From Mobula hypostoma (taxonomy: Eukaryota), in contig NC_086108.1 in the NCBI RefSeq assembly GCF_963921235.1, positions 67,954,001 through 68,018,000 of the forward strand: a DNA stretch of 64,000 nt, given 5' to 3'. Positions 3,705 to 63,808 of the stretch are shown here, in pieces. Under the pieces are notes generated by a model. It saw only the letters and a program-made list of their open reading frames with translations. It was not told the DNA's origin and did not search any database. A program made the translations under genes and the position numbers. Numbering within the stretch: the first letter of the stretch is position 1; each line of letters begins with the position of its first letter.

Positions 3705-4083
3705 CTGTATGTTCACCTCTCTGCCCCTCTATTAGGGAGAGAGAAAGCCTATCATATGTCAAATTGTGAGGTGAATGATTAGTTTTGGTTGAACTGCAGA
3801 TCATGGTCTTTCTTGGGGGCTTTGCTATTGCTTGCTTAGAGGGTGGAGGGTGCCAATGCTTTTGGCCAATGTAAGTGGGGGAGGGGGAAGGGCCGATGCT
3901 TTGCTGCTGCTTGTACATGGGAGGGAGGAGTGGGGGGGGGCTCTGGGGTTCTAACAGTTTTACTGTCACATTATTTGGGGCACTCCAGTTTTCATGGATG
4001 TCTGCAAAGGACAAGAATTTCATGTTGTATGCTGGGTACATCTCTATATTAAATGGAACTATTGAAACTACTGAACTATTGAA
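3705..4083 (+). mobile_element. Non-autonomous retroelement 3' part (same family as 16889-19811 and 41367-41650)
   Basis: Shared TATTAGGGAGAGAGA..., GGGGTTCTAAC, GGGGCACTC, and a tail ending in repeated CTATTGAA. Confidence 0.75.
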
Positions 4084-16065: not shown

Positions 16066-17671
16066 ACTTTTCCCCACTGCCATGCATTGTGCAAGTTACT
16101 TCAAGAATATCGTGATCCTGCTCAACCTAACCAAAAACCTATTAACCATTAACTTATTAATGGGAAGTGACAACACAATTATACTAGCATTGGAAGCGAG
16201 ATGAGTACACCAACTACAACAATAAAGGAACAGAATAAGGTGAACACTCGACCCATGCCTCTGTCAGCAGGACTTCAGGATCCACTAACTGAGGCCTAGT
16301 CATTCTCTGCCAGAATGTTCTATTTTACAAAGTGGCACAAAATTGAAAAATCCCACAAAGCCATAGATTGTAAGCAACAGGAAATGCTTGGTGATGTGGG
16401 AATTGCGGGGGAGGGGGGAATTGGTGGTAGCAATGGGGGAGGACAAATATATGTAGATAGAGCAGTTTGGTCATTATAGGTAAAACTATCATAGCATTGA
16501 TTGATTCTCCAATCTTCAACTATTTCTGAGCACTCAATTCAATTACCATGCTTTTTCTATGTAGCAAGCATAGCATTCAGCCCCATCAATATAGCTGAAT
16601 TTTACATTTAATCATCTTGTGCAGGATTGCTTTTTTTTGATTTTCAAGTTGACTAATAGTTAATTGAAAGACAGCATATTTCTGGCATGTATTGATTATA
16701 CTGTGAAAGTACTTGCAGTTTGTATGTTGTAATCTGAGAAACAAAGAGATATGCATTAATTCAGCAGTGACATTTCAGACCATAATATAACATAGTTTCA
16801 CTAAGCCTTAACAAATCTTAGTACTACAATGACTTGTCCATCAATAATATTGAATTTCTAACTTGAATTTTAAAAAATAATTTAATATGGAGGCACCGCA
16901 AAGTCAAGATGGCGCTGAACAGCGACTCTTTTGCTTGCATCTTCGGAAACAGCACTGTTTCTATCTTTGATAATTTTCTCCCCCTTTTCAAGCTTCTTTT
17001 GAAGACTCTGACCTGGAGTTACATTCTGACTTTGGTTCTTTGCGGGAATGGGACCCGCTGTCAGGGTCTCACGACTGGCCGCTTTTTGATATACCAAGGA
17101 CGGGGCCTGGAAGGCAAAATCAGGGCTCCGGATTTTCACAGCTCTGGAGGCGTGCTGATTCTAGACTGGTGCCCCTGACTGAAGTGTCACAGGAAAACAC
17201 GGAACATCGGGAGCAACGGGTTAGCTGCTGGGGCTCATGTGTCCAGAGAGCTCGGGAAAAGTGACACAACAGACTTCTAACATCGTAAATCAGTGAGTTG
17301 TTTGTTATGTCTCCCCTCTCGCTGTGAAATGGGGTCACCTCTTTTTCCCTTATTAGGGAAAGAGAGAGCCTGTGGTATATCGAATTACTGGGTGAACGTG
17401 TAGTTTTTGGGGTATTGCAAGCCTGTGTCTTTATTGATGCTTTGCTGCAGGCTTGAGTGCTTGGTGGACGGTGCTGTTGCTTTTTTGCTGGTGGGGGCAG
17501 GGGGGAGTGGTCATTGCCTTGCTGCTGCTTATGCATGGGAGGGGGAGCTGGGGGGACCTAGGGGTTCTAACGTTTAACTGTCATACATCCTTTGGGGCAC
17601 TCCTCTGTTTTTCTGGATGTTTATGAAGAAAAGGAATTTTAGGATATACAGTTGAAGTCAGAAGTTTACAT

Positions 17672-18177
17672 TGAATTGAACTGAATGATCTTTATTGTCA
17701 TTATACATAGGTACAATGAAACTCTGTTTGGCTTCCTCTCAGGCAATTAAATAAAGCAGTAAATAAAAACAAGACAGTAATAGAAAAACAGTATTAAATA
17801 GATAAATAGCAGAAAATAAGTTGCAGCATCACCGGAATATCACAGTAATGCACAAAGTGCCGTTAGTGCAAGTATTTGAGTCCTTGTGTGTTCATGTGTG
17901 TGCTCACAGTTCCAGTCATTGTTCTGTGGGAGTGGTGTGATGGAGGCCACAGCTCTGGGATAGAAGCTGTTCCTCAGTCTATTTGTTCTGGATTTTAGTG
18001 TCCTGAACCTTTTGCTGGACGGCAGCGGGTCAAACAGGGAGTGGCCGGGGTGTGTGGTGTCTCCGATTATGCTGATTGCTTTCCTCTTGAGTCTGCTGGA
18101 ATAGATGGTGCCCAGTCCAGGGAGCTCCATCCTGACAATTCACTGGGCCGCCTTCACCACGTGATGCAGGTCTTGTC
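17672..18177 (-). mobile_element. Rex1/Babar-type LINE 3' fragment inserted in the Tc1 outer DR
   Basis: ORF 17840-18130 ELPGLGTIYSSRLKRKAISIIGDTTHPGHSLFDPLPSSKRFRTLKSRTNRLRNSFYPRAV; tail (TTCAA/TTCAG)n at 17672-17686. Confidence 0.88.
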
Positions 18178-18370
18178 GCCAAATACACTAAAACTCAGTT
18201 TTTCACAATTCCTGATATTTAATCCTAGAAAACATTCCCTGTCTTAGGTCAGTTAGGATCACTACTTTATTTTAAGAATGTGAAATGTCAGAATAATAAT
18301 AGAATGATTTATTTCAGCTTTTATTTCTTTCATCACTTTCCCAGCGTGTCAGAAGTTTACATACACTTTG

Positions 18371-19313
18371 TTAGTATCTGGTAGAATTGCTTTTAAATTA
18401 TTTAACTTGGGTCAACTGTTTGAGGTAGCCTCCCACAAGCTTCTCACAATAAGTTGCTGGAATTTTGTTCCATTCCTCCAGACAGAACTGGTGTAACTAA
18501 GTCAGAATTGTAGGCCTCCTTGCTCGCTTTTTCAGTTCTGCCCACAGGCCAGGGCTTTGTGATGGCCACTCCAATACTTCGATTTTGTTGTCCTTAAGCA
18601 ATTTTGCTACAACTTTCGAGGTATACTTGGGGTCATTGTCCATTTGGAAGACCCATTTGCGACCGAGCTTTAACTTCCTGGCTGATGTCCTGAGATGTTG
18701 CTTCAATATATCTAGATAATTTTCCTTCCTCTTGATGCCATCTATTTTGTGAAGTGCACGAGTCCCTCCTGCAGCAAAGCACCCCCACAACATGATGCTG
18801 CCACCCCCATGCTTCATGGTTGGGATGGTGTTCTTCAGCTTGCAAGCCTCACCCTTTTTCCTCCAAACATAACGAAGGTCATTATGGCCAAACAGTTCAA
18901 TTTTTGTTTCATCAGACCAGAGGACACTTCTCTAAAAAGTAAGATCTTTGTCCCCATGTGCACTTGCAAACTGTAGTCTGGCTTTTTTATGGCAGTTTTG
19001 GAGCAGTGGCTTCTTCCTTGCTGAGCAGCCTTTCAGGTTATGTCGATATAGGACTCGTTTTACTGTGGATATAGATATTTGTCTGCCTGTTTCCTCCAGC
19101 ATCTTCACAAGGTCCTTTGCTGTTGTTCTGGGATTGATTTGCACTTATTGCGCCAAAGTACGTTCATCTCTAGGAGACAGAATGCGTCTCCTTCCTGAGC
19201 GGTATGACAGCTGCGTGGTCCCATGGTGTTTATACTTGCGTATTATTGATTGTACAGATGAACGTGGTACCTTCAGGCATTTGGAAATTGCTTCCAAGGA
19301 TGAACCAGACTTG
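18371..19313 (-). pseudogene. Tc1/Sleeping Beauty-like DD34E transposase, inactivated
   Basis: KSGSSLEAISKCLKVPRSSVQ..GRRRILSPRDER, INPRTTAKDL, ARKKPLL, WSDETKIELFG, KHGGGSIMLWGCF, FQMDNDPKYTS, WPSQSP. In-frame stops; N-terminus missing; DLNPIEN (catalytic E) deleted. Confidence 0.95.
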
Positions 19314-19322
19314 ACATCATTT

Positions 19323-19530
19323 TCTGACCTCAATCTGATAAAAAAAATTGTGGGCAGAACTGAAAAAGCATGTGCGAGCTAGGAGGCCTACAAACCTGAC
19401 TCAGTTGCAGCAGTTTTGTCTGGAGGAATGGAACAAAATTCCAGCAACTTACTGTGAGAAGCTTATGGAAGGCTATCCAAAACATTTGACCCAAGTTAAA
19501 CAACTTAAAGGCAATGCTACCAAATACTAA
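19323..19530 (+). pseudogene. Inverted second copy of the transposase C-terminus
   Basis: DLNLI..WAELKKHVRARRPTNLTQLQQFCLEEWNKIPATYCEKLMEGYPKHLTQVKQLKGNATKY*, followed by a right IR/DR. Confidence 0.93.
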
Positions 19531-22500
19531 CAAAGTGTATGTAAACTTCTGACCCACTGGGAAAGTGATGAAAGAAATAAAAGCTGAAATAAATCATTCT
19601 CTCTACTATTATTCTGACATTTCACATTCTTAAAATAAAGTAGTGATCCTAACTGACCTAAGACAGGGAATGTTTTCTAGGATTAAATGTCAGGAATTGT
19701 GAAAAACTGAGTTTAAACGTATTTGGCTAAGGTGTATGTAAACTTCTGACTTCAACTGTATATTGTACACATTTCTCTAACATAAAATGTACCTATTGAA
19801 ACCTATTGAAATTACCGGTAACATGAAGTTGAATCCAATCATTGTGTATTTTATCAATGGAAACATTAATCTCATTTTAAACTAATTTTTCTTTCATGCA
19901 GAATAAGGAGCAAATTAATATAAGCATAGCATAGAACATCAAAGATGCCCACAGGTATCTGAAGAAACCTTTGCCATTACCTAATTAATCTTGTCATTAT
20001 TAGACGTACAGTATGTTCAAATTATTACTTTCCGTAGTTAAATTCAGATTAGTTTGTTCAGCAACAGAAAATAATGCAGGAAGATTGTTGCTTCCCTACT
20101 ACACGTTTCAGTACACACATACAGTACCTATCAATACTCAGCTTTCTAAAGTGAATCATGGAACTACTCTGACTGAATCCCATGTTTACAACTTTACCAA
20201 TTTTCATTTATCTTCCATTTGTGCTGGTGAATTCAATTTCTTCCTCGGATGGAGACTCACACAAATTGTTTTCTACATGAATATATCATTACCAGCCATA
20301 GACAATAGAAGTTCCTATATATATTTTTTACAAATGCTGAGAAGACTCAAACCATGCTGATAAAAGGGCAAATGCAGCACACTTAAATGTTGTTTACAAA
20401 TGAAAAGTTAAAGTAATAGGAATTCTTCAACAGAGGTTTACTTAATAAAACATCACACACGGTCTGTAAAACACAGCACATAATTTTACAAATGCTAGAA
20501 TTCTACCATTATCTCAAAGACTACACTTACAAATTAGGGGAGCACCTTAATGATCTAATGGGACTTTCAGGAAAAAAAATAAATGAGTGATATACGGCTT
20601 TAATTTTCTGAAGAGAGTTATTAAGGTAGTTCAAATACCATATTTACTATTTTAGGGAAGGCAGAACATGCGCTGTGCATAGAATCAGAATTAGAATGAA
20701 CACCTCGAATAGTCCTCAAAGAGTTTGCTGGCAGACAATTAAAGACCTCAAAACATTTGGAAACATTTTTATTTCACCAGAAGCAGTGTCTATATTCATA
20801 AAAATCTGGATCCTCAAAATCACTGCAGAATGTTATCAAATTGCCTCAATTATCCCTGTAACTGGCTTTACAACAATTCTTTATACTTCCAAACAGCTCC
20901 CCATCATACTTAATAAGTATCAGTTAAACCTTAAATAAGGACAGTGGACGTTCTGTAGAATTTACAAAACAAAAACATAAATTATTTCCTTTCAAATTCT
21001 TTGTACCTCGAAGATACAGTTTGGAAAGATGTCATATGGGTATCATATGCACTCATAAGCAATAAGGAAATTGTAAAAAATGGAGAAAAATTAAGGTGGG
21101 AGATAAAATGAGAGTCTGAAGATTCTCTGGGGAGTCAAAACAGCATACAGAAACCTTCCACTGATTTTCAAATAATGATATTGCATCTATATTTCCATAT
21201 TATCCTCAGGTGCAGTCATTTGATCATAGTGGACACAACCGCCCTTCCCTCCTTTACAGTTAAATCTCAATAAGTCCTGTTTTCTTCAGAAATGACCAAT
21301 ATTACTTTGGGCTCCTGTTTGTCTGCAGGCTTCAGTCTGATTGGAATTTAACTTATTGGTGCCTGAAGCTACACATAACATTCTCGGATAGGGTTATGCC
21401 TGATAAATGCCTGATAAGTATCTAGCATGTAGGCAAGCAATTCACATTGGTGGTAGCACAAACCAGAACAAAGGAAAAGTAAGCATGTTTTAAAGGAAAG
21501 GAAAATAGGTAGGTATATAAACAGGTTGTCAATTTGTTCTCACAAAAGAGACTTTCTGATATTCTGATATTTTTCCAGATAAACGGACGATACCTTCCGG
21601 CAGTCTGTAACAGTTCATTCTTTCCTGGTCTGTTCTTATAGCTTTAATGAAGCTCAGTAAAACTGCTCCAAGCCTTCGTTTAATATGAGATGTTGCAGGA
21701 AATCACGTTTCACCTTACTTTAATACAGCACTTTCAACGTACTAAAAAATCATGTCTTATTCTTATGTAAAACTTGACACTATTCTACATATTAATCAAA
21801 CTGGCTAAAAAGTAAGCGATAGGAAAATATCATGTCGGTGAGGTCATGGGAGGGAATTACAAAGATAAGGCCCTGGAAGTTGAAGGAACTTCAGTTGATT
21901 CTGCAGTGAATAAAATTAAGGATGTTCAAGAGGCCGAAATCAGGAGAACAAACATATATTGAATGTTTGTAGAGATGGATTTGATTATAAAAAAACAATG
22001 GCCAAGTTCATGGAGAGACTTGAAAATTAGAATGAACATAGGTCAGCAGTATAAAGGGTAAATAGGACATCAAAACAAAGGATGAATTCAAGTATACTGT
22101 GAATAGATTAAAATAAACTGGCTGTCAAGACATAACAAAATATAGATGAAGCTCAAAGCAGATAGATTAAAGAATGAGAAGAGCTGGGTGGTGTTTTTGA
22201 AGCTTAAGGAGGCAATGTGTAGATTATTAGTTGTGACTAAGACACCAATGCTATTCAGCTTCAGACATCTGCCAGAGAGAGTGGAGAGTGATGGAATCAA
22301 TAGCTGAGTCACAAGGTTTCAACCTTTCCAACACATAGTAGGAAGAAATTTCTGCTTGTTAGATAAGCACTCTAAAATTTAGAGACAGTGAAGAGCTTGA
22401 GATAAGTGGATGAATGTTGCAAGTGGCAAATGAAGCACTAAAATAACAATCATTCAAAAGTGCTAACATGGATTTAAAAAAAACTAAATCAGATCACAGA

Positions 22501-36820: not shown

Positions 36821-39433
36821 TAGCGCCAAAATACCCCTACCCCAATAAAATGGCAAAAAAAGTTCTTTGGTCATCTCTTGTACTTTCAGACATACTGAAC
36901 AACATATCAAAAGTTGGACAGAAATGGAGCATTGGAAAGTAAAAGAAAATGGCGTTAAAAACATGGCCACCAATGAAAAGAATGGGACCCATACCTGTCT
37001 TATTTTGCTATATTTCACTGTTTCTAACAATGATAGTGCCATAATTGTGGTATAAAATGTGAATGTGCTCGTCTCTATCTCCAGAAGACGCATGCGTTGC
37101 AGGATGACAACCCTGAGGTTCATCGGAAGTTCCAGTCTGGGTTCCATGTAATCAGATGCAGCAGCCAATACTGGGCTGGTCTTGGGCTCTGATCTTGTGA
37201 TAGAACAGACACTAATGCACTCACTAAAAAGCCAAGAGAGCCTAACGCGAGGAAGTGGGATGTCAGAGCAAGCACCAGAGAGCAGTTTGTACTATGTCTT
37301 CCACTGTGTTATCGTCTTACAATCTTGCCATGCAAGAACTGACCACGAATAGTTACACAACAGGTGAACAACATAAGGAGTTGCCCACCTCCAGAGTGAG
37401 TAGAGATGAGGCTGACTTTGAAAAAGTCGCAGCAAAACTGGACTGTTTCACACCAGTTTTTGGATGATAAATCATTGCACAACATCATCACAGTGGTTTA
37501 TGCAAATGAGGATGTCAATGTACATGACCTGTTCACAATAGGAAATGACATAGTTAGGAAGATGGACAGACACTCTGTTTTCTCATAGTCGCACAAAAGG
37601 AGTTCAAAGGTCAAGACACTAGCATCCAGAAGGGCAGTCAAAGTTGCTGAAGACCGTACCACAGATCCAGCATTGATATTCCAGGGGTTCCTAGCTGTGT
37701 CACAGACAGGTGATCTCCGGCTAGTCGAAGTGATGAACTATGAACCCTGTCCATATCCGATGTCTTTGTTTGAAGCAAAGAACATCTTGCGCCAGCCGCA
37801 TAAGCCGCAACTGGCAGAAGCGATAAAGAACTACATCTCCTCCAAATCGAACAATGCTGTCACACAGATGGTCCCAGTGACAGATCACTATGTTCTAGAT
37901 GGGGGATCACTTCTGCACCGCTTAAAATGGATGGAGGGGTGCATCTACAGTTCAATTGCAGATGACTACACCTCATTCACTGTCAAACACTATGCCAGAG
38001 CCACTGTAGTGTTTGATGGTTATGGGGTGGGCCAAGCATAAAGGACTGTACTCATCAGCGTCAAAATAGAAATTTGAATGCAAACAAGGTGAACATTACA
38101 GGGGTGACAAAATTTGTTGGAAAAAATGAGGACTTCTTGTCGAATGAGGCAAACAAGCATGTAATTATCCAGCTCATCATGGAACGTTTGTGACAGAGAG
38201 GCTGCGAAGTGATTCAAGCTGAAGGAGATGCCGATGTTGAGATCGCAAAAGCAGCCATCACAATGTCTGCTTTCAAATCTACCACCCTCGTTGCAGAAGA
38301 CACAGATATCCTCGTACTCTTGCTCTACCATGTAGTGGTAAAAAACTGCACTAAACTCTATTTCCGCTCGGACAACGCGAAATCAAATGCCTATAATATC
38401 AAGGTCCTTAAGCAGATACTCAGAGAAGCAGCTATAATGATCTATTGTTTCTCCATGCCTTTACCGGATGTGACTCAATGTCCAGAGTATTTGGGATCTG
38501 AAAGAAGTCGAGGTTCCAAAGAATCATCAAGAAAGAAAATGGAATCAGAAACTGTTCAAAAGCATTCTGTTCACCAAAGCAAAGTCAGGATGTTGTGGAA
38601 ACCAATGGCTATAGGGCAACGGTGGCATTGTTCAATGGAAATCAGAACGACTCCCTGGCATCTATCAGACACAATATGCTTTGCAAGAAAGTTGCGAGAG
38701 CTAAGACTTTTGTCACACCTGAAAGACTGGCACCAACTACCTCGGCCTATAAAGTTCACTCTCTGCGGACTTACTACCAGGTTATGGAATGGATGGGCTG
38801 TCGTGATCAAATGGAGCCGTCTGAGTGGAGATGGAGGGCAGAAGGGGAAAAATTCGTTCCAGTGATGACAGACAAAAGGCCTGCTCCAGGGTTACTTATT
38901 CAGATGATTCACTGCAAATGTTCGGGAGGGTGCAATATGCTAAAGTGTACCTGCAGAAAGCATAGGCTGGAATGCACCAATGCATGTGGGCATTGCCAAG
39001 ATGGCAACTGTGACAATATGACAAATGAGCCAGTGAAAGAAGAGGATGATGAACAAGACTACATCTGAGAAGCCATAAGGTGTCATGACGTCAGTACTTA
39101 ATACCAGAGTTGTCCCTTGATTACCTCATTGATGACGTCATGACATCAGTACAAATATTCCAGGAACTACTGTTATTGAAAAACATTGGTGAAAAGAGCA
39201 TTCAGTAAAACATCAGGTTTAAAAAACTTGTAATTTGATGGTTATCAGTCAGATTTTTGATGTTTTTATGCTGGCGGCCATCTTGTTTTTTGATATCATT
39301 TTTGGAGACTTTCCCATGTGTCAAAATTGTCCAACTTTTGATATGTTGTTCTCCACATCGAATAGTACAATAAATGATCATAAAACTTATTTTTGCAATT
39401 TTTTGGGGGTTAGGTGGTATATTTTCCCATCTA
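36821..39433 (+). mobile_element. Academ-superfamily (AcademX-type) DNA transposon, internally deleted
   Basis: TAG...CTA termini. Imperfect ~150-bp TIRs with an exact 24-bp inverted core GAACAACATATCAAAAGTTGGACA (36897-36920 / 39328-39351). Coding remnant as in the next feature. Confidence 0.82.
37080..39068 (+). pseudogene. Academ protein C-terminal portion: transposase tail, XPG/FEN-like nuclease, Cys-rich (Cys8/CXC) finger
   Basis: GFHVIR..YWAGLGSDLVIEQTLM..LTRGSG; VLDGGSLLH; VVFDGY; EGDADVEI; EDTDILVLLL; FLHAFTGCDS (frame-shifted, ~38448-38478); CKCSGGCNMLKCTCRKHRLECTNACGHCQDGNCDN. Several stops and frameshifts. Confidence 0.8.
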
Positions 39434-41366: not shown

Positions 41367-41650
41367 GTGTTCAATAGTTCCATTTAATATCAGAGAATGT
41401 ATACAATGTACAACCTGAAATTCTTGTTCTTCACAGACATCTATGAAAACAGAAGGGTCCTCCAAAGAATGAGAGATGGTAAAACTATTAGAACCCCAAA
41501 GTCCCCCCTCCCACACACATGCAGCAGCAAAGCATCGACCTCCCCCTCCCCCATTTACTTCAGCAAAAAAGCATCAGCAACCTCCACCCGCCAAGCAAGC
41601 AATAGCAAAGCCCCCAAGAAAGACGATGACGCAGTAATCCAAATCAAAAA
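41367..41650 (-). mobile_element. Non-autonomous retroelement 3' part (family of 3705-4083)
   Basis: GTTCAATAGTTCCATTTAATATCAGAGAATGTATAC is the reverse complement of the tail at 4040-4066. Confidence 0.8.
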
Positions 41651-59018: not shown

Positions 59019-60591
59019 ATTGTGGGGGTACCATTCTGGGATTGATTTTGTTGCATGCTGTGTGATTGCCCTGAGCATTGAACCAGTGGGTTGTGTGTTT
59101 AAGTCAAGAGGGTTTGGGGGGGCATCCTGTATCAGGATCAGGGCACCGGGTTGAGACCCATTGTGTTTGTCAGCCGGACTATCGCCCTGAGAAAAACTAT
59201 CCAAGTTGGAATTTCTGGCCTTGAAATGGGCGGTGGTGGATAAGTTGAGTGACTAGCTCTATGGAGACAAGTTTGAGGTGAGAATGGCCAACAACCCCCT
59301 AAATTATATCCTGACCTTGGCAAAAGTGGATACCAGAGGCCTTTGGTGGTTGGCGGCGTTGTCTGCCTATGATTTCAGCCTGAAGTACCGGCAGGGAAGC
59401 AGGAACATTGATGCTGATGCTTTGACCCAATGGGCGCATAACGGACTGGACAGGGATGAAGAGTGGGAGAGCGTTCCTGCCCCGGAGTTGAAGGCCCTAT
59501 GTCAGTTTGCCATCACCGTGAAGGTAGAGGGAAAGGAGGGGCAGGATCGAGTGGTGGATCAAATGGGAGCTTCTGATGACGTCATTCCCCAAGCTTACCT
59601 GACTGCTCTGAAGACAAATCCGTTGCCAGAATTGAGGTCGAGGGAAGTGGCAGCTGCTCAGTGAGATGATCCAGGCATCGGTACCATTTGGTCAGCGGTC
59701 AAAAAGGGAGACATGGCTCAGGCAGAGAAGACGAAACATGCTTCGGTGCCTCCATTACTGAGAGCATGGCCTCAGTTGGAGTTGAAGAACCAGATCTTAT
59801 ACCGGACACGTCACCCCTGGGCCGACCTCAATGTCACCAGCTGGTTCTGCCCGAGAAGTATCAGAAGATTGTATTGAAGTCACTTCATGATGATTCTGGA
59901 CATTTGGGGGTTGAAGAGACCTATGGATTGCTCAGAGGCTGGTTTTACTGGCCTCGAATCAAGTTGGAAGTCGAAGAATACTGCAAGTCGTGCATTTGAT
60001 GCATATGGCAGAAGACGCTGCCTACGCGATCAGCTCCCTTGTCCCACTTGCAGAGTGGGGGGCCTCTGGACCTGGCGTGTATGGATTTTCTGTCCATAGA
60101 ATCCGATGCCAGCAACATGGCGAATGTCTTAGTCATCGTGGGCCACTACACCAGATATGCTCAGGCTTTTCCTACCAAGGACCAGAGGGCGTCCATGGTG
60201 GTTGAAGTGTTATGGGAGAAGTATTTCATTTATAATGGCCTCCCCAGGGGGATACATAGGGATCAGGGATGGAATTTCGAGAGCAGACTCATACATGAGT
60301 TACTGAGCATGCTTGGAGTAGAGAAGTCGAGGACCACGCCCTATCATCTGCAGGGTGATCCCCAGCCTGAGAGGTTTAATCGGACCTTGCTGGACATGCT
60401 CAAGACCCTGGAGATCAGCAAGAAGAGCTAGTGGTGTCAACATATTAGGCATCTGGTTCACAGTTATAATTGTACACAAAATGAAGCAATTGGGTACTCG
60501 CCATATTATCTGATGTTTCGGTACAAGACGAGGTTGCCCATTGACCTTTGATTTGGGACTGACGAGGATGACCTACCTCTGAAGATTTATC

Positions 60592-62869
60592 AAAACATAG
60601 AACATAGAATAGTACAGCCCAGTACAGGCCCTTTGGCCCACAATGTTGTGCCGACCCTCAAACCCTGCCTCCCATATAAGCCCCCACCTTAAATTCCTCC
60701 ATATACCTGTCTAGTAGTCTCTTAAACTTCACTAGTGTATCTGCCTCCACCACTGACTCAGGCAGTGCATTCCACGCACCAACCACTCTCTGAGTAAAAA
60801 ACCTTCCTCTAGTATCCCCCTTAAACTTCCCACCCCTTACCTTAAAGCCATGTCCTCTTGTATTGAGCAGTGGTGCCCTGGGGAAGAGGCGCTGGCTATC
60901 CACTCTATCTATTCCTTTAATTATCTTGTACACCTCTATCATGTCTCCTCTCATCCTCCTTCTCTCCAAAGAGTAAAGCCCTAGCTCCCTTAATCTCTAA
61001 TCATAATGCTTACTCTCTAAACCAGGCAGCATCCTGGTAAATCTCCTCTGTACCCCTTCCAATGCTTCCACATCCTTCCTATAGTGAGGCGACCAGAACT
61101 GGACACAATACACCAAGTGTGGCCTAACCAGAGTTTTATAGAGCTGCATCATTACATTGTGACTCAAACCCTATCCCTCGACTTATGAAAGCTAACACCC
61201 AATAAGCTTTCTTAACTACCCTATCCACCTGTGAGGCAACTTTCAGGGATCTGTGAACATGTACCCCAAGATTCCTCTGTTCCTCCACACTACCAAGTAT
61301 CCTGCCATTTACTTTGTACTCTGCCTTGGAGTTTGTCCTTCCAAAGTGTACCACCTCACACTTCTCCGGGTTGAACTCCATCTGCTACTTCTCAGCCCAC
61401 TTCTGCATCCTATCAATGTCTCTCTGCAATCTTTGACAATCCTCTACACTATCTACAACACCACCAACCTTTGTGTCAGCTGCAAACTTGCCAACTCACC
61501 TTTCTACCCCCACATCCAGGTCGTTAATAAAAATCACGAAAAGTAGAGGTCCCAGAACCGATCCTTGTGGGACACCACTAGTCACAATCCTCTAATCTGA
61601 ATGCACTCCCTCCACCACGACCCTCTGCCTTCTGCGGGCAAGCCAATTCTGAATCCACCTGGCCAAACTTCCCTGGATCCCATGCCTTCTGACTTTCTGA
61701 ATAAGCCTACCGTGTTGAACCTTGTCAAGTGCTTTACTAAAATCCAAATAGATCACATCCACCGCACTACCCGCCTCTATATACCTGGTCACCTCCTCAA
61801 AGAACTCTATCAGGCTTGTTAGACACGATCTGCCCTTCACAAAGCCGTGCTGACTATCCCTGATCAGACCATGATTCTCTAAATGCCTATAGATCCTATC
61901 TCTAAGAATCTTTTCCAACAGCTTTCCCACCACAGACGTAAGGCTCACTGGTCTATAATTACCCGGACTATCCCTACTACCTTCTTTTGAACAAGGGGAC
62001 AACAATCGCCTCCCTCCAATCCTCCGGTACCATTCCTGTAGACGAGGACATAAAGATCCTAGCCAGAGGCTCAGCAATCTCTTCCCTCGCCTCGTGGAGC
62101 AGCCTGGGGAATATTCCGTCAGGCCCCGGGGACTTATCTGTCCTCATGTATTTTAACAACTCCAACACATCCTCTCCCTTAATATCAACATGCTCCAGAA
62201 CATCTACCTCACTCATATTGTCCTCACCATCATCAAGTTCCCTCTCATTGGTGAATACCAAAGAGAAGTATTCATTGAGGACCTCGCTCACTTCCACAGC
62301 CTCCAGGCACATCTTCCCACCTTTATCTCTAATCGGTCCTACTTTCACTCTTGTCATCCTTTTCTTCTTCACATAATTGAAGAATGCCTTGGGGTTTTCC
62401 TTTACCCTACTCGCCAAGGTTTTCTCATGCCCCCTTCTTGCTCTTCTCAACCCCTTCTTAAGCTCCTTTCTTGCTTCCCTATATTCCTCAATAGACCCAT
62501 CTGATCCTTGCTTCCTAAACCTCATGTATGCTGCCTTCTTCCACCTGACTAGATTTTCCACCTCACTTGTCACCCATGGTTCCTTCACCCTATCATTCTT
62601 TATCTTCCTCACCGGGACAAATTTATCCCTAACATCCTGCAAGGGATCTCTAAACATCGACCACGTGTCCATAGTACATTTCCCTGCAAAAACACCATCC
62701 CAATTCACACCCGCAAGTTCTAGCCTTATAGCCTCATAATTTGCCCTTCCCCAATTAAAAATTTTCCTGTCCTCTCTGATTCTATCCTTTTCCATGATAA
62801 TGCTAAAGGCCAGGGAGCGGTGGTCACTGTCCCCCAGATGCTCACCCACTGAGAGATCTGTGACCTGAC
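60592..62869 (-). mobile_element. Young 5'-truncated CR1 LINE inserted in the Gypsy B integrase
   Basis: Long ORFs: GEHLGDSDH..KSPGPDGI (61977-62849); NYRPVSLTSVVGKLLE..SQHGFVKGRSCLT..YLDFSKALDKV (61592-62077); FFTQRVVGAWNALP. Tail ATTCTATGTTCTATG. The Gypsy frame KIY-L-KNVSDMRRE resumes across it. Confidence 0.96.
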
Positions 62870-63808
62870 CTGAAAAATGTGTCTGATATGAGAAGGGAGC
62901 TGAAAAAGGCTTATGAATTAGCTGGGGCTGCGGCTGCCAAGCCGAATCAAGGAAATAAGAGGAGGTATGATCAAAAGTTGAGGTTCTCCCAACTCCTGCC
63001 AGAAGACCAAGTCCTCATAAGGAATTTGGGGCTACCTGGGAAGCATAAGTTGGCTGACCACTGGGCGGCTACGCCCTATGTGGTGGAGAGTCAGATGCCA
63101 AATGTACCAGTTTTCCAGGTGAAACCAGAGGAGGGGAACGGGCCTGGCAAGATTCTCCATCAGAACCACTGCTGCCCCTGTGACAAGAGATACAGGTAGA
63201 CCCAGAGCCCGACCTGGAGCCTACACCTAGTAAGAGGACTCTGTGAAAATGTGGGGCGACTGCAGGGCCAACAGCAGGAGAGGTTAAGCTGGCCTCTACC
63301 CCTGGAAGGATACTGATTCGGAGGATGAGGACCTGGATGTCTGGTATATGCTGCCTTTTGCTAACTCCCCATTGATTGAGGAAGAGACTTCCAGCCCTTC
63401 TCCCACTGAATCAGGTGAAGTTGGGGGGGGGGGCTATCTGTGGACAGCCTGGGTTGCAGCGGGACCCTGCAAGGGATGAAGTGGGGCTTGGCCACGTGAC
63501 AGAGAAGTCTGAGTTGCAGATGGGGACAAGGGATAGGCTGGGGGATGCTTTGCCAGGTAGACCAGAAGTATTTCCAGTAGTGTCTGAACCTATAGAGTTA
63601 GGTGAGGGTGAAGGGAGGTGTCCAGAGAATTAGGGGACTACCAGATAAGCTGGGCTATGTAGCACCGGAGGAACAGATCATGACCCCTACCATTCTGGGG
63701 AGCTAGGTCACTACCTTTTACATCTTGTTTAGACTTTGTGTTTTGCAGAAAGGTTTGGCGAATTATCTCAAAGTCATGAGGACATGACTAAATTTGGTGT
63801 GGGGAGAG

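Follow-up and report, generated by a model that had tools for sequence, protein, structure and literature searches.

A rearranged Sleeping Beauty-clade transposon in a ray genome, probably of horizontal origin, in which one end has been replaced by a copy of the other

The genome of the ray Mobula hypostoma raises the question of how a cartilaginous fish came to carry a transposon of the Sleeping Beauty (SB) clade, the source of a widely used gene-transfer tool, and what has happened to that transposon since. The element occupies positions 17649-19758 of a 64,000-nt stretch of DNA analyzed here as a whole and called the window (assembly GCF_963921235.1, contig NC_086108.1, positions 67,954,001 to 68,018,000). 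We read it as a dead, rearranged SB-clade Tc1 element whose family very probably reached rays horizontally, from a common stock of elements that also colonized salmonids and other bony fishes. An earlier note made from the sequence alone had claimed an SB-type transposon at these positions, and matches in Pfam, in the PDB, and to the inverted repeat/direct repeat (IR/DR) termini bear out a Tc1-type element of this kind.

The transposase pseudogene (18371-19313, minus strand) covers codons 20-340 in a single frame, as delimited with Pfam, the PDB, and comparison with L001, an intact reference element. Pieces of it match HTH_SB, HTH_Tnp_Tc3_2, and DDE_3 above the curated cut-offs, the top PDB matches for all three pieces searched are SB chains (5CR4, 5UNK, and 2M8E), and 263 of 309 amino acids are identical to the SB vector protein (P0136). 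Two members of the DD34E triad, D153 and D244, are kept in this copy, and the region of the catalytic E279 has been taken out by an 18-nt deletion. There is also a separate 6-nt deletion, and stop codons stand at codons 75, 146, 299, and 332. The start codon and the left IR/DR are absent, and no 5′ untranslated region (UTR) was found in the 64-kb window. With two right ends, no 5′ UTR, and four stops, the copy departs from the canonical autonomous SB layout.

A single TA site holds the whole element, with TA at both tips. To its left, a host interspersed repeat (17335-17648, plus strand), recognized by alignment to other copies, ends in the target TA (17647-17648); to its right, the flank alignment finds the duplicated TA (19759-19760) and the continuation of the same repeat (19759-19810, plus strand). 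With the element and one TA cut out, the joined flanks give a gap-free alignment with two further copies of the repeat, at 3713-4075 and 41370-41624, so that a TA target-site duplication with a continuous empty site is present, as in the SB clade. Because the flanks rejoin as uninterrupted host repeat, the composite sits in one target site. The repeat itself (17335-17648 with 19761-19810, and the two copies just named) occurs three times in the window at 71-72% identity and has a short tandem tail. Four DR cores, at 17657, 18348, 19537, and 19734, all lie inside the element, where chance predicts 0.02 for the window. These cores predict two transposase-binding DRs per end, with one outer DR now broken by a long interspersed nuclear element (LINE). 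No second copy of the element was found within the 64-kb window. Plasmid and phage collections held no match to it, viral and prokaryote contigs gave 0 matches to its terminal motif, and Rfam gave no hit anywhere in the window.

Any statement about origin depends on a measure of distance, for which L001 served as the reference. This metagenome contig is one of 3 loci confirmed among 130 candidate stretches, and it holds an intact 1640-nt element whose open reading frame (ORF) matches the transposase of the cloning vector pT2/Gene-Trap (P0136) at 336/340 residues (98.8%). Public sequencing runs were also searched: 24 runs from 16 studies shared 0.37-0.46 of words, none above half, and 4 of the 24 were compared with the region. 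At all 40 places shown (of 70 listed), the majority letter in these four runs is the L001 letter. Because the vector match and the majority letters of the runs agree, L001 was taken to represent the salmonid type and an abundant natural family. The transposon is deeply covered in the four runs, and its flanks and nested LINE are essentially uncovered; this was not counted as evidence, since such contigs show presence and not absence.

Measured against L001, the minus-strand ORF is identical at 881 of 943 nt (93.4%), which over 311 codons gives a synonymous divergence (dS) of 0.065 with an upper 95% bound of 0.114, a nonsynonymous divergence (dN) of 0.071, and a dN/dS of 1.1. A second, duplicated C-terminal piece is more distant (dS 0.20 and dN 0.11 over 67 codons), and the copy as a whole carries 107 substitutions in 1570 nt, 16 of them common to both of its inverted arms. 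The non-coding right IR/DR is 96-97% identical to that of L001. For 19535-19758 the near-identity to a right IR/DR claimed in the earlier note proved accurate, at 218/224 positions (97.3%). At the protein level, the ray copy and L001 are 86.1% identical, more than L001 and the Sparus element (84.4%) or L001 and the Prochilodus element (81.8%). Differences from the salmonid type cluster at codons ~300-317 (18374-18500, minus strand; 19400-19530, plus strand), with 17 in 120 nt versus 4-9 in other blocks. Four of six residues common to both arms in this region match the Sparus/Prochilodus type, and a mosaic between subfamilies or salmonid-specific changes are both possible explanations for the cluster.

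These distances are far smaller than inheritance from a common host ancestor would produce. A vertebrate synonymous rate of 3.1e-9 per site per year (PMC7070016) and a ray-teleost split reported at ~462 Ma (PMC13343379) together predict a neutral divergence of 1.4-2.9 under vertical descent, leaving a 22- to 44-fold gap to the observed dS. A rate ten times slower on both branches still predicts ~0.29, above the upper bound of 0.114. The horizontal transfer proposed in the earlier note is thereby supported. One could propose instead that the element descended from the jawed-vertebrate ancestor and that its likeness was kept by the slow clock of sharks and rays together with selection on the transposase. 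A very low mutation rate has indeed been reported for a shark, at 7e-10 per generation (PMC10587355), and the ray group may sit outside all teleost rows of the SB clade, as the host tree requires. But the salmonid branch alone should contribute ~1.4 substitutions per synonymous site, the non-coding IR/DR is as similar as the figures above show, and the salmonid type has a nearer relative in the ray copy than in the elements of Sparus or Prochilodus. With a dN/dS of about 1 and a conserved non-coding end, there is no sign of host-level constraint holding the sequence in place, and we regard vertical descent as very improbable.

A resident LINE offers a comparison from the same window. Its ORF at 61977-63014 has 16 homologues, of which the 7 that carry a species name all come from cartilaginous fishes: Mobula hypostoma (86, 89, and 54% identity), Hypanus sabinus (84 and 78%), Pristis pectinata (72%), and Heterodontus francisci (61%). 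A teleost host had been named beforehand as a finding that would refute transfer, and these seven relatives point to a cartilaginous host, likely a myliobatiform ray. With 61% identity to the shark protein, as against 86% between the ray and salmonid transposases, the LINE has diverged more between ray and shark than the transposase has between ray and salmonid, which also counts against vertical descent.

Identity to a vector-type element this high also brings to mind contamination of the assembly by salmonid DNA or an SB vector, and the long inverted arms are of a kind that may confuse assemblers and lead to a misassembled locus. Against contamination, however, stand the 107 substitutions relative to L001, with 16 common to both arms, the subfamily residues in common with a Mobula gene model, and the interruption of a host repeat at one TA by an element that itself bears a nested LINE. 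A misassembly is opposed by the 27 differences in 375 sites between the arms, which mean that neither arm is a collapsed copy of the other. An artefact of either kind is therefore exceedingly improbable.

The Mobula gene model, P0059 (XP_062921089.1), shares 10 residues with the window copy against L001 over 201 positions. Annotated as a LACTB2 isoform of Mobula hypostoma, it opens with ~200 residues of open SB-clade transposase, a part that is probably either a transposon-derived exon or an annotation artefact. Another gene model with such a start is P0147 (XP_062858538.1), a "fibrillin-2" model of Trichomycterus rosablanca, in which the first ~328 residues are SB-clade transposase joined to cysteine-rich repeats. 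A tree of 22 rows, picked from the hits and trimmed of chimeric tails, places 17 of them in an SB clade with support of 100/99. Within the clade, the two ray rows group at 87/84, the salmonid rows at 93/93 without either ray row, and the other teleost rows at 100/99. The ray element thus does not belong to the salmonid subfamily itself but forms a sister subfamily, at a distance of ~4%. The three groups meet in an unresolved trichotomy at the root of the clade, with a support of 62/0 for the basal node, and keeping the 15 non-ray rows together costs nothing in an approximately unbiased (AU) test (p 0.51). The topology is therefore compatible with rays outside teleosts, and it is the branch lengths that are incompatible with the host ages. 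Since the tree leaves the base of the clade unresolved, it is distance, and not topology, that argues for transfer.

The same tree leaves room for transfer in the opposite direction, with the element first resident in rays, whose slow clock would have made them a reservoir for its later passage to salmonids and other teleosts. The ray group takes a basal place in the SB clade, with a short branch (0.02), at several residues the ray sequences agree with the Sparus/Prochilodus type and not with the salmonid type, and Tc1/mariner content is reported as high in rays and skates (PMC12361510). Set against this, 107 of 108 host species given for the SB clade are ray-finned fishes (PMC9777934), the named outgroup elements in the tree all come from teleosts, and the basal node lacks support. 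A ray origin is, in our judgment, unlikely. Transfer into rays remains the preferred reading, and it would have begun with the arrival of an active SB-clade element in an ancestor of rays, carried by some vector and most likely derived from a teleost-associated source. Such a source is the more likely one because of the preponderance of ray-finned hosts in the same survey. Once inside, the element would have multiplied by cut-and-paste transposition into TA sites.

Several points weigh against transfer into rays. Ray sequences are not nested among teleost elements, monophyly of the teleost sequences is not rejected, and the tree gives no direction. The expected dS was borrowed from a published rate and a published split and not from host genes of rays and salmonids. 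The evidence on the host comes from one LINE, and LINEs of related groups are reported to have crossed between rays and teleosts (PMC13343379). Among the matches listed (120 + 120), a single cartilaginous-fish protein has an SB-type transposase. Lastly, the copy dates to ~12 My at the general vertebrate rate and may be much older. A date from the pedigree rate of the epaulette shark, 257-1286 My for generations of 5-25 years, was set aside as not credible, and a literature search for a yearly shark rate found nothing relevant. The SB source has been described as active more than 10 Mya in salmonids (PMC2198921).

The second part of the question concerns the structure of the copy. The element lies on the minus strand, and its own right IR/DR therefore stands at the left of the window coordinates. 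This right IR/DR survives in two pieces: a tip of 23 nt of the outer DR (17649-17671, minus strand), which, flanks included, matches the right tip in inverted orientation at 100% over 28 nt, and the remainder (18178-18370, minus strand; inner DR core 18348-18364), which is identical to the L001 right IR/DR at 180 of 193 positions (93.3%). Beyond the pseudogene, where the left end would be expected, the strand switches. A junction at 19314-19327, compared with both L001 segments and assigned to neither strand, probably holds degraded codons ~11-16 of the minus strand. The switch itself occurs at a 4-nt microhomology, CTGA (19324-19327). From there an inverted duplicate of transposase codons ~274-340, closing with KGNATKY and a stop, runs along the plus strand (19324-19530), with 183 of 206 positions identical to L001 and a 1-nt insertion near its start. 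A complete right-type IR/DR follows in left-end position (19531-19758, plus strand; DR cores 19537-19553 and 19734-19750), identical to the L001 right IR/DR at 219 of 228 positions; by comparison, 19535-19758 reaches just 72.7% against the L001 left IR/DR. The last ~435 nt of the element, including the KGNATKY piece, occur a second time, inverted, in place of the left end.

This structure had been missed in the earlier note, whose individual observations stand in part. At the right tip (minus strand, ending at 19758) all of the 26-nt terminal motif is present, but the left tip retains 23 nt only. The IR/DR architecture is real in that four DR cores are present, but the arrangement of left IR/DR, ORF, and right IR/DR was wrong, since both ends are right-type and the arm at 18178-18370 aligns to the L001 left IR/DR over a DR only. 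The KGNATKY motif is likewise present, but it closes the 67-codon plus-strand duplicate (19324-19530), and the long minus-strand ORF ends in a decayed form of it.

Both inverted arms are right ends, and they align over 379 columns at 90.5% identity counting gaps. Between them, 27 of 375 sites differ, and the 16 further differences from L001 are common to both. Private changes number 17 in one arm and 9 in the other (p 0.17). In L001 coordinates the breakpoints are set in from the ends by ~420 nt on the left and ~432 nt on the right, and the element without its LINE measures 1612 nt versus 1640 nt for the L001 element. Breakpoints this close to symmetry have a probability of ~0.02 if breakpoints are uniformly distributed, a value computed post hoc. 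Near the symmetric register a 4-nt microhomology is no rarity (69 of 14275 pairs), and no unusual folding was detected at the junction (z -1.43). Contigs of the four public runs continue past 19313 into normal N-terminal codons, and no joint at 19313-19330 occurs among the joints listed for these runs (15 of 435). A joint at 18546/19348 in two runs was considered as the composite form and was read instead as normal elements mapping across the 18-nt deletion.

A fold-back within one strand is favored because the breakpoints lie at nearly equal distances from the two ends, and it is the most likely origin of the right-end duplication. By this account, a single strand would fold back, held by its terminal repeats, and repair synthesis would enter from the left tip with the right arm as template. 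Synthesis would then pass the inner DR into the end of the ORF before rejoining at the facing 4-nt microhomology, leaving two right ends and an unchanged length. The rearrangement, whether it took place in this copy or in its donor, would also have removed the 5′ UTR and the start codon. It has to be weighed that the fold-back mechanism stands on one junction and a probability computed after the fact. For the structure alone, the right ends could have come from two independent head-to-head copies, or from gap repair mis-primed on the end of another copy, and we consider this a serious if less probable alternative. The 7.2% divergence of the arms is also expected of two independently aged copies, and the counts of private changes and the frequency of such microhomologies stand on the same side. 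Yet the rejoining of the flanks at a single TA rules out that two head-to-head insertions at different sites were brought together by deletion of the intervening DNA, and gap repair from another copy, the main alternative, does not predict near-symmetric breakpoints. Autointegration was rejected as well, because the positions linked at the junction are both internal, with neither a transposon tip nor a TA taking part.

Neutral decay would have followed the rearrangement, and the later insertion of a LINE would have destroyed one of the transposase-binding tips. The LINE is a 3′ fragment of 506 nt inside the outer DR (17672-18177, minus strand), recognized because its translation resembles those of three other LINE remnants in the window, with its edges set by comparison with L001. 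Its insertion cost the outer DR 8 nt. No target duplication was seen around the fragment at 17672-18177, and Pfam gave no hit on its 506 nt; presumably it is Rex1/Babar-like. The copy is likely to be immobile now. As long as its outer DR was not yet broken by the LINE, the form with two right ends could in principle have been mobilized in trans. Donors bearing right+right ends reportedly move poorly.

How do these results compare with known systems? Transfer of Tc1 elements between distant fishes, transfer of LINEs between rays and teleosts, and replacement of one end by the other in mariner elements are all known already. The window element shares with the SB/salmonid Tc1 elements of DD34E type a TA target, an IR/DR of ~228 nt with two DR cores, and a 340-aa paired-like/DDE transposase (PMC9777934), but it differs in its cartilaginous host, in forming its own subfamily, and in a window copy without left IR/DR, start codon, or E279. 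In the available part of their survey of the SB clade, Jia et al. (2022) list 107 ray-finned fishes and one mollusc for SB and no Chondrichthyes, with one chondrichthyan carrying ZB-like elements only (ZB-Calmil) (PMC9777934). Kuraku et al. (2012) described Tc1 transfer between teleosts and lampreys with 95-99% identity across a split of >450 My and a Ka/Ks near 1, which is much like the present case (PMC3516227). That transfer concerns another family, DTSsa1, which was not amplified there from cartilaginous fish, and parasitism by lampreys offers it a route (PMC3516227), whereas none is known for the ray element. Closer in terms of hosts, Rex1 and L2 transfers have been reported for the same pair of host lineages and the same ~462 Ma split (PMC13343379), but these are retrotransposons and the window element is a cut-and-paste DNA transposon.

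For the rearrangement, the nearest parallel is the long-terminal-inverted-repeat mariner derivatives of Drosophila, in which one end, inverted, likewise stands a second time in place of the other (Wallau et al. 2014, PMC4161770). In those forms the 5′ part always replaces the 3′ part, as reported there, whereas in the window copy the 3′ part replaces the 5′ part. The Drosophila forms were also amplified as sublineages of miniature inverted-repeat transposable elements; the one copy in the window is of nearly unchanged length (1612 versus 1640 nt). The origin of the mariner rearrangements was called elusive (PMC4161770), and the near-symmetric junction described here is a clue to how one transposon end replaces another.

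Additional context on cartilaginous fishes comes from several sources. Tc1/mariner elements have been reported to make up 3.28% in skates, 2.30% in rays, 0.14% in sharks, and 0.03% in chimaera at the superfamily level (PMC12361510); that text names SB as a subcategory only, and the word "horizontal" is absent from it. In a screen of 307 vertebrate genomes, the species tree as presented has a cartilaginous-fish clade made up of Callorhinchus and Rhincodon only (Zhang et al. 2020, PMC7070016). Bands of other salmonid-like Tc1 elements were reported from polymerase chain reaction with salmon shark DNA (PMC12441823) and were not used as support here, and none of five chondrichthyan terms occurs in PMC12400950. 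Our literature search, which ran outside subscription journals, Repbase, and Dfam, found no report of SB-clade elements in rays.

The element extends the range of the SB clade to cartilaginous fishes: the host class is new, and the family and the process are both known already. Transfer into rays also provides a testable cause for the unexplained excess of Tc1/mariner elements in rays and skates (PMC12361510). A shared invasion, if true, would give a time marker for comparing the neutral rates of rays and salmonids. A bolder proposal, which we would offer as a long shot, is that the Tc1/mariner expansion of rays and skates is mostly a horizontally acquired SB burst, that rays acted as a slow-clock reservoir seeding teleosts including salmonids, and that the form with two right ends represents an amplified fold-back sublineage.

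Elsewhere in the window, three overlapping ORFs (150, 223, and 188 aa) at 37589-39068 on the plus strand, with a cysteine-rich end and no Pfam hit, resemble a decayed DNA-transposon gene. At 59257-63410 lies the remnant of a long terminal repeat retroelement with an integrase core (rve, 60000-60431), split by a CR1-type LINE (RVT_1, 61592-62143).

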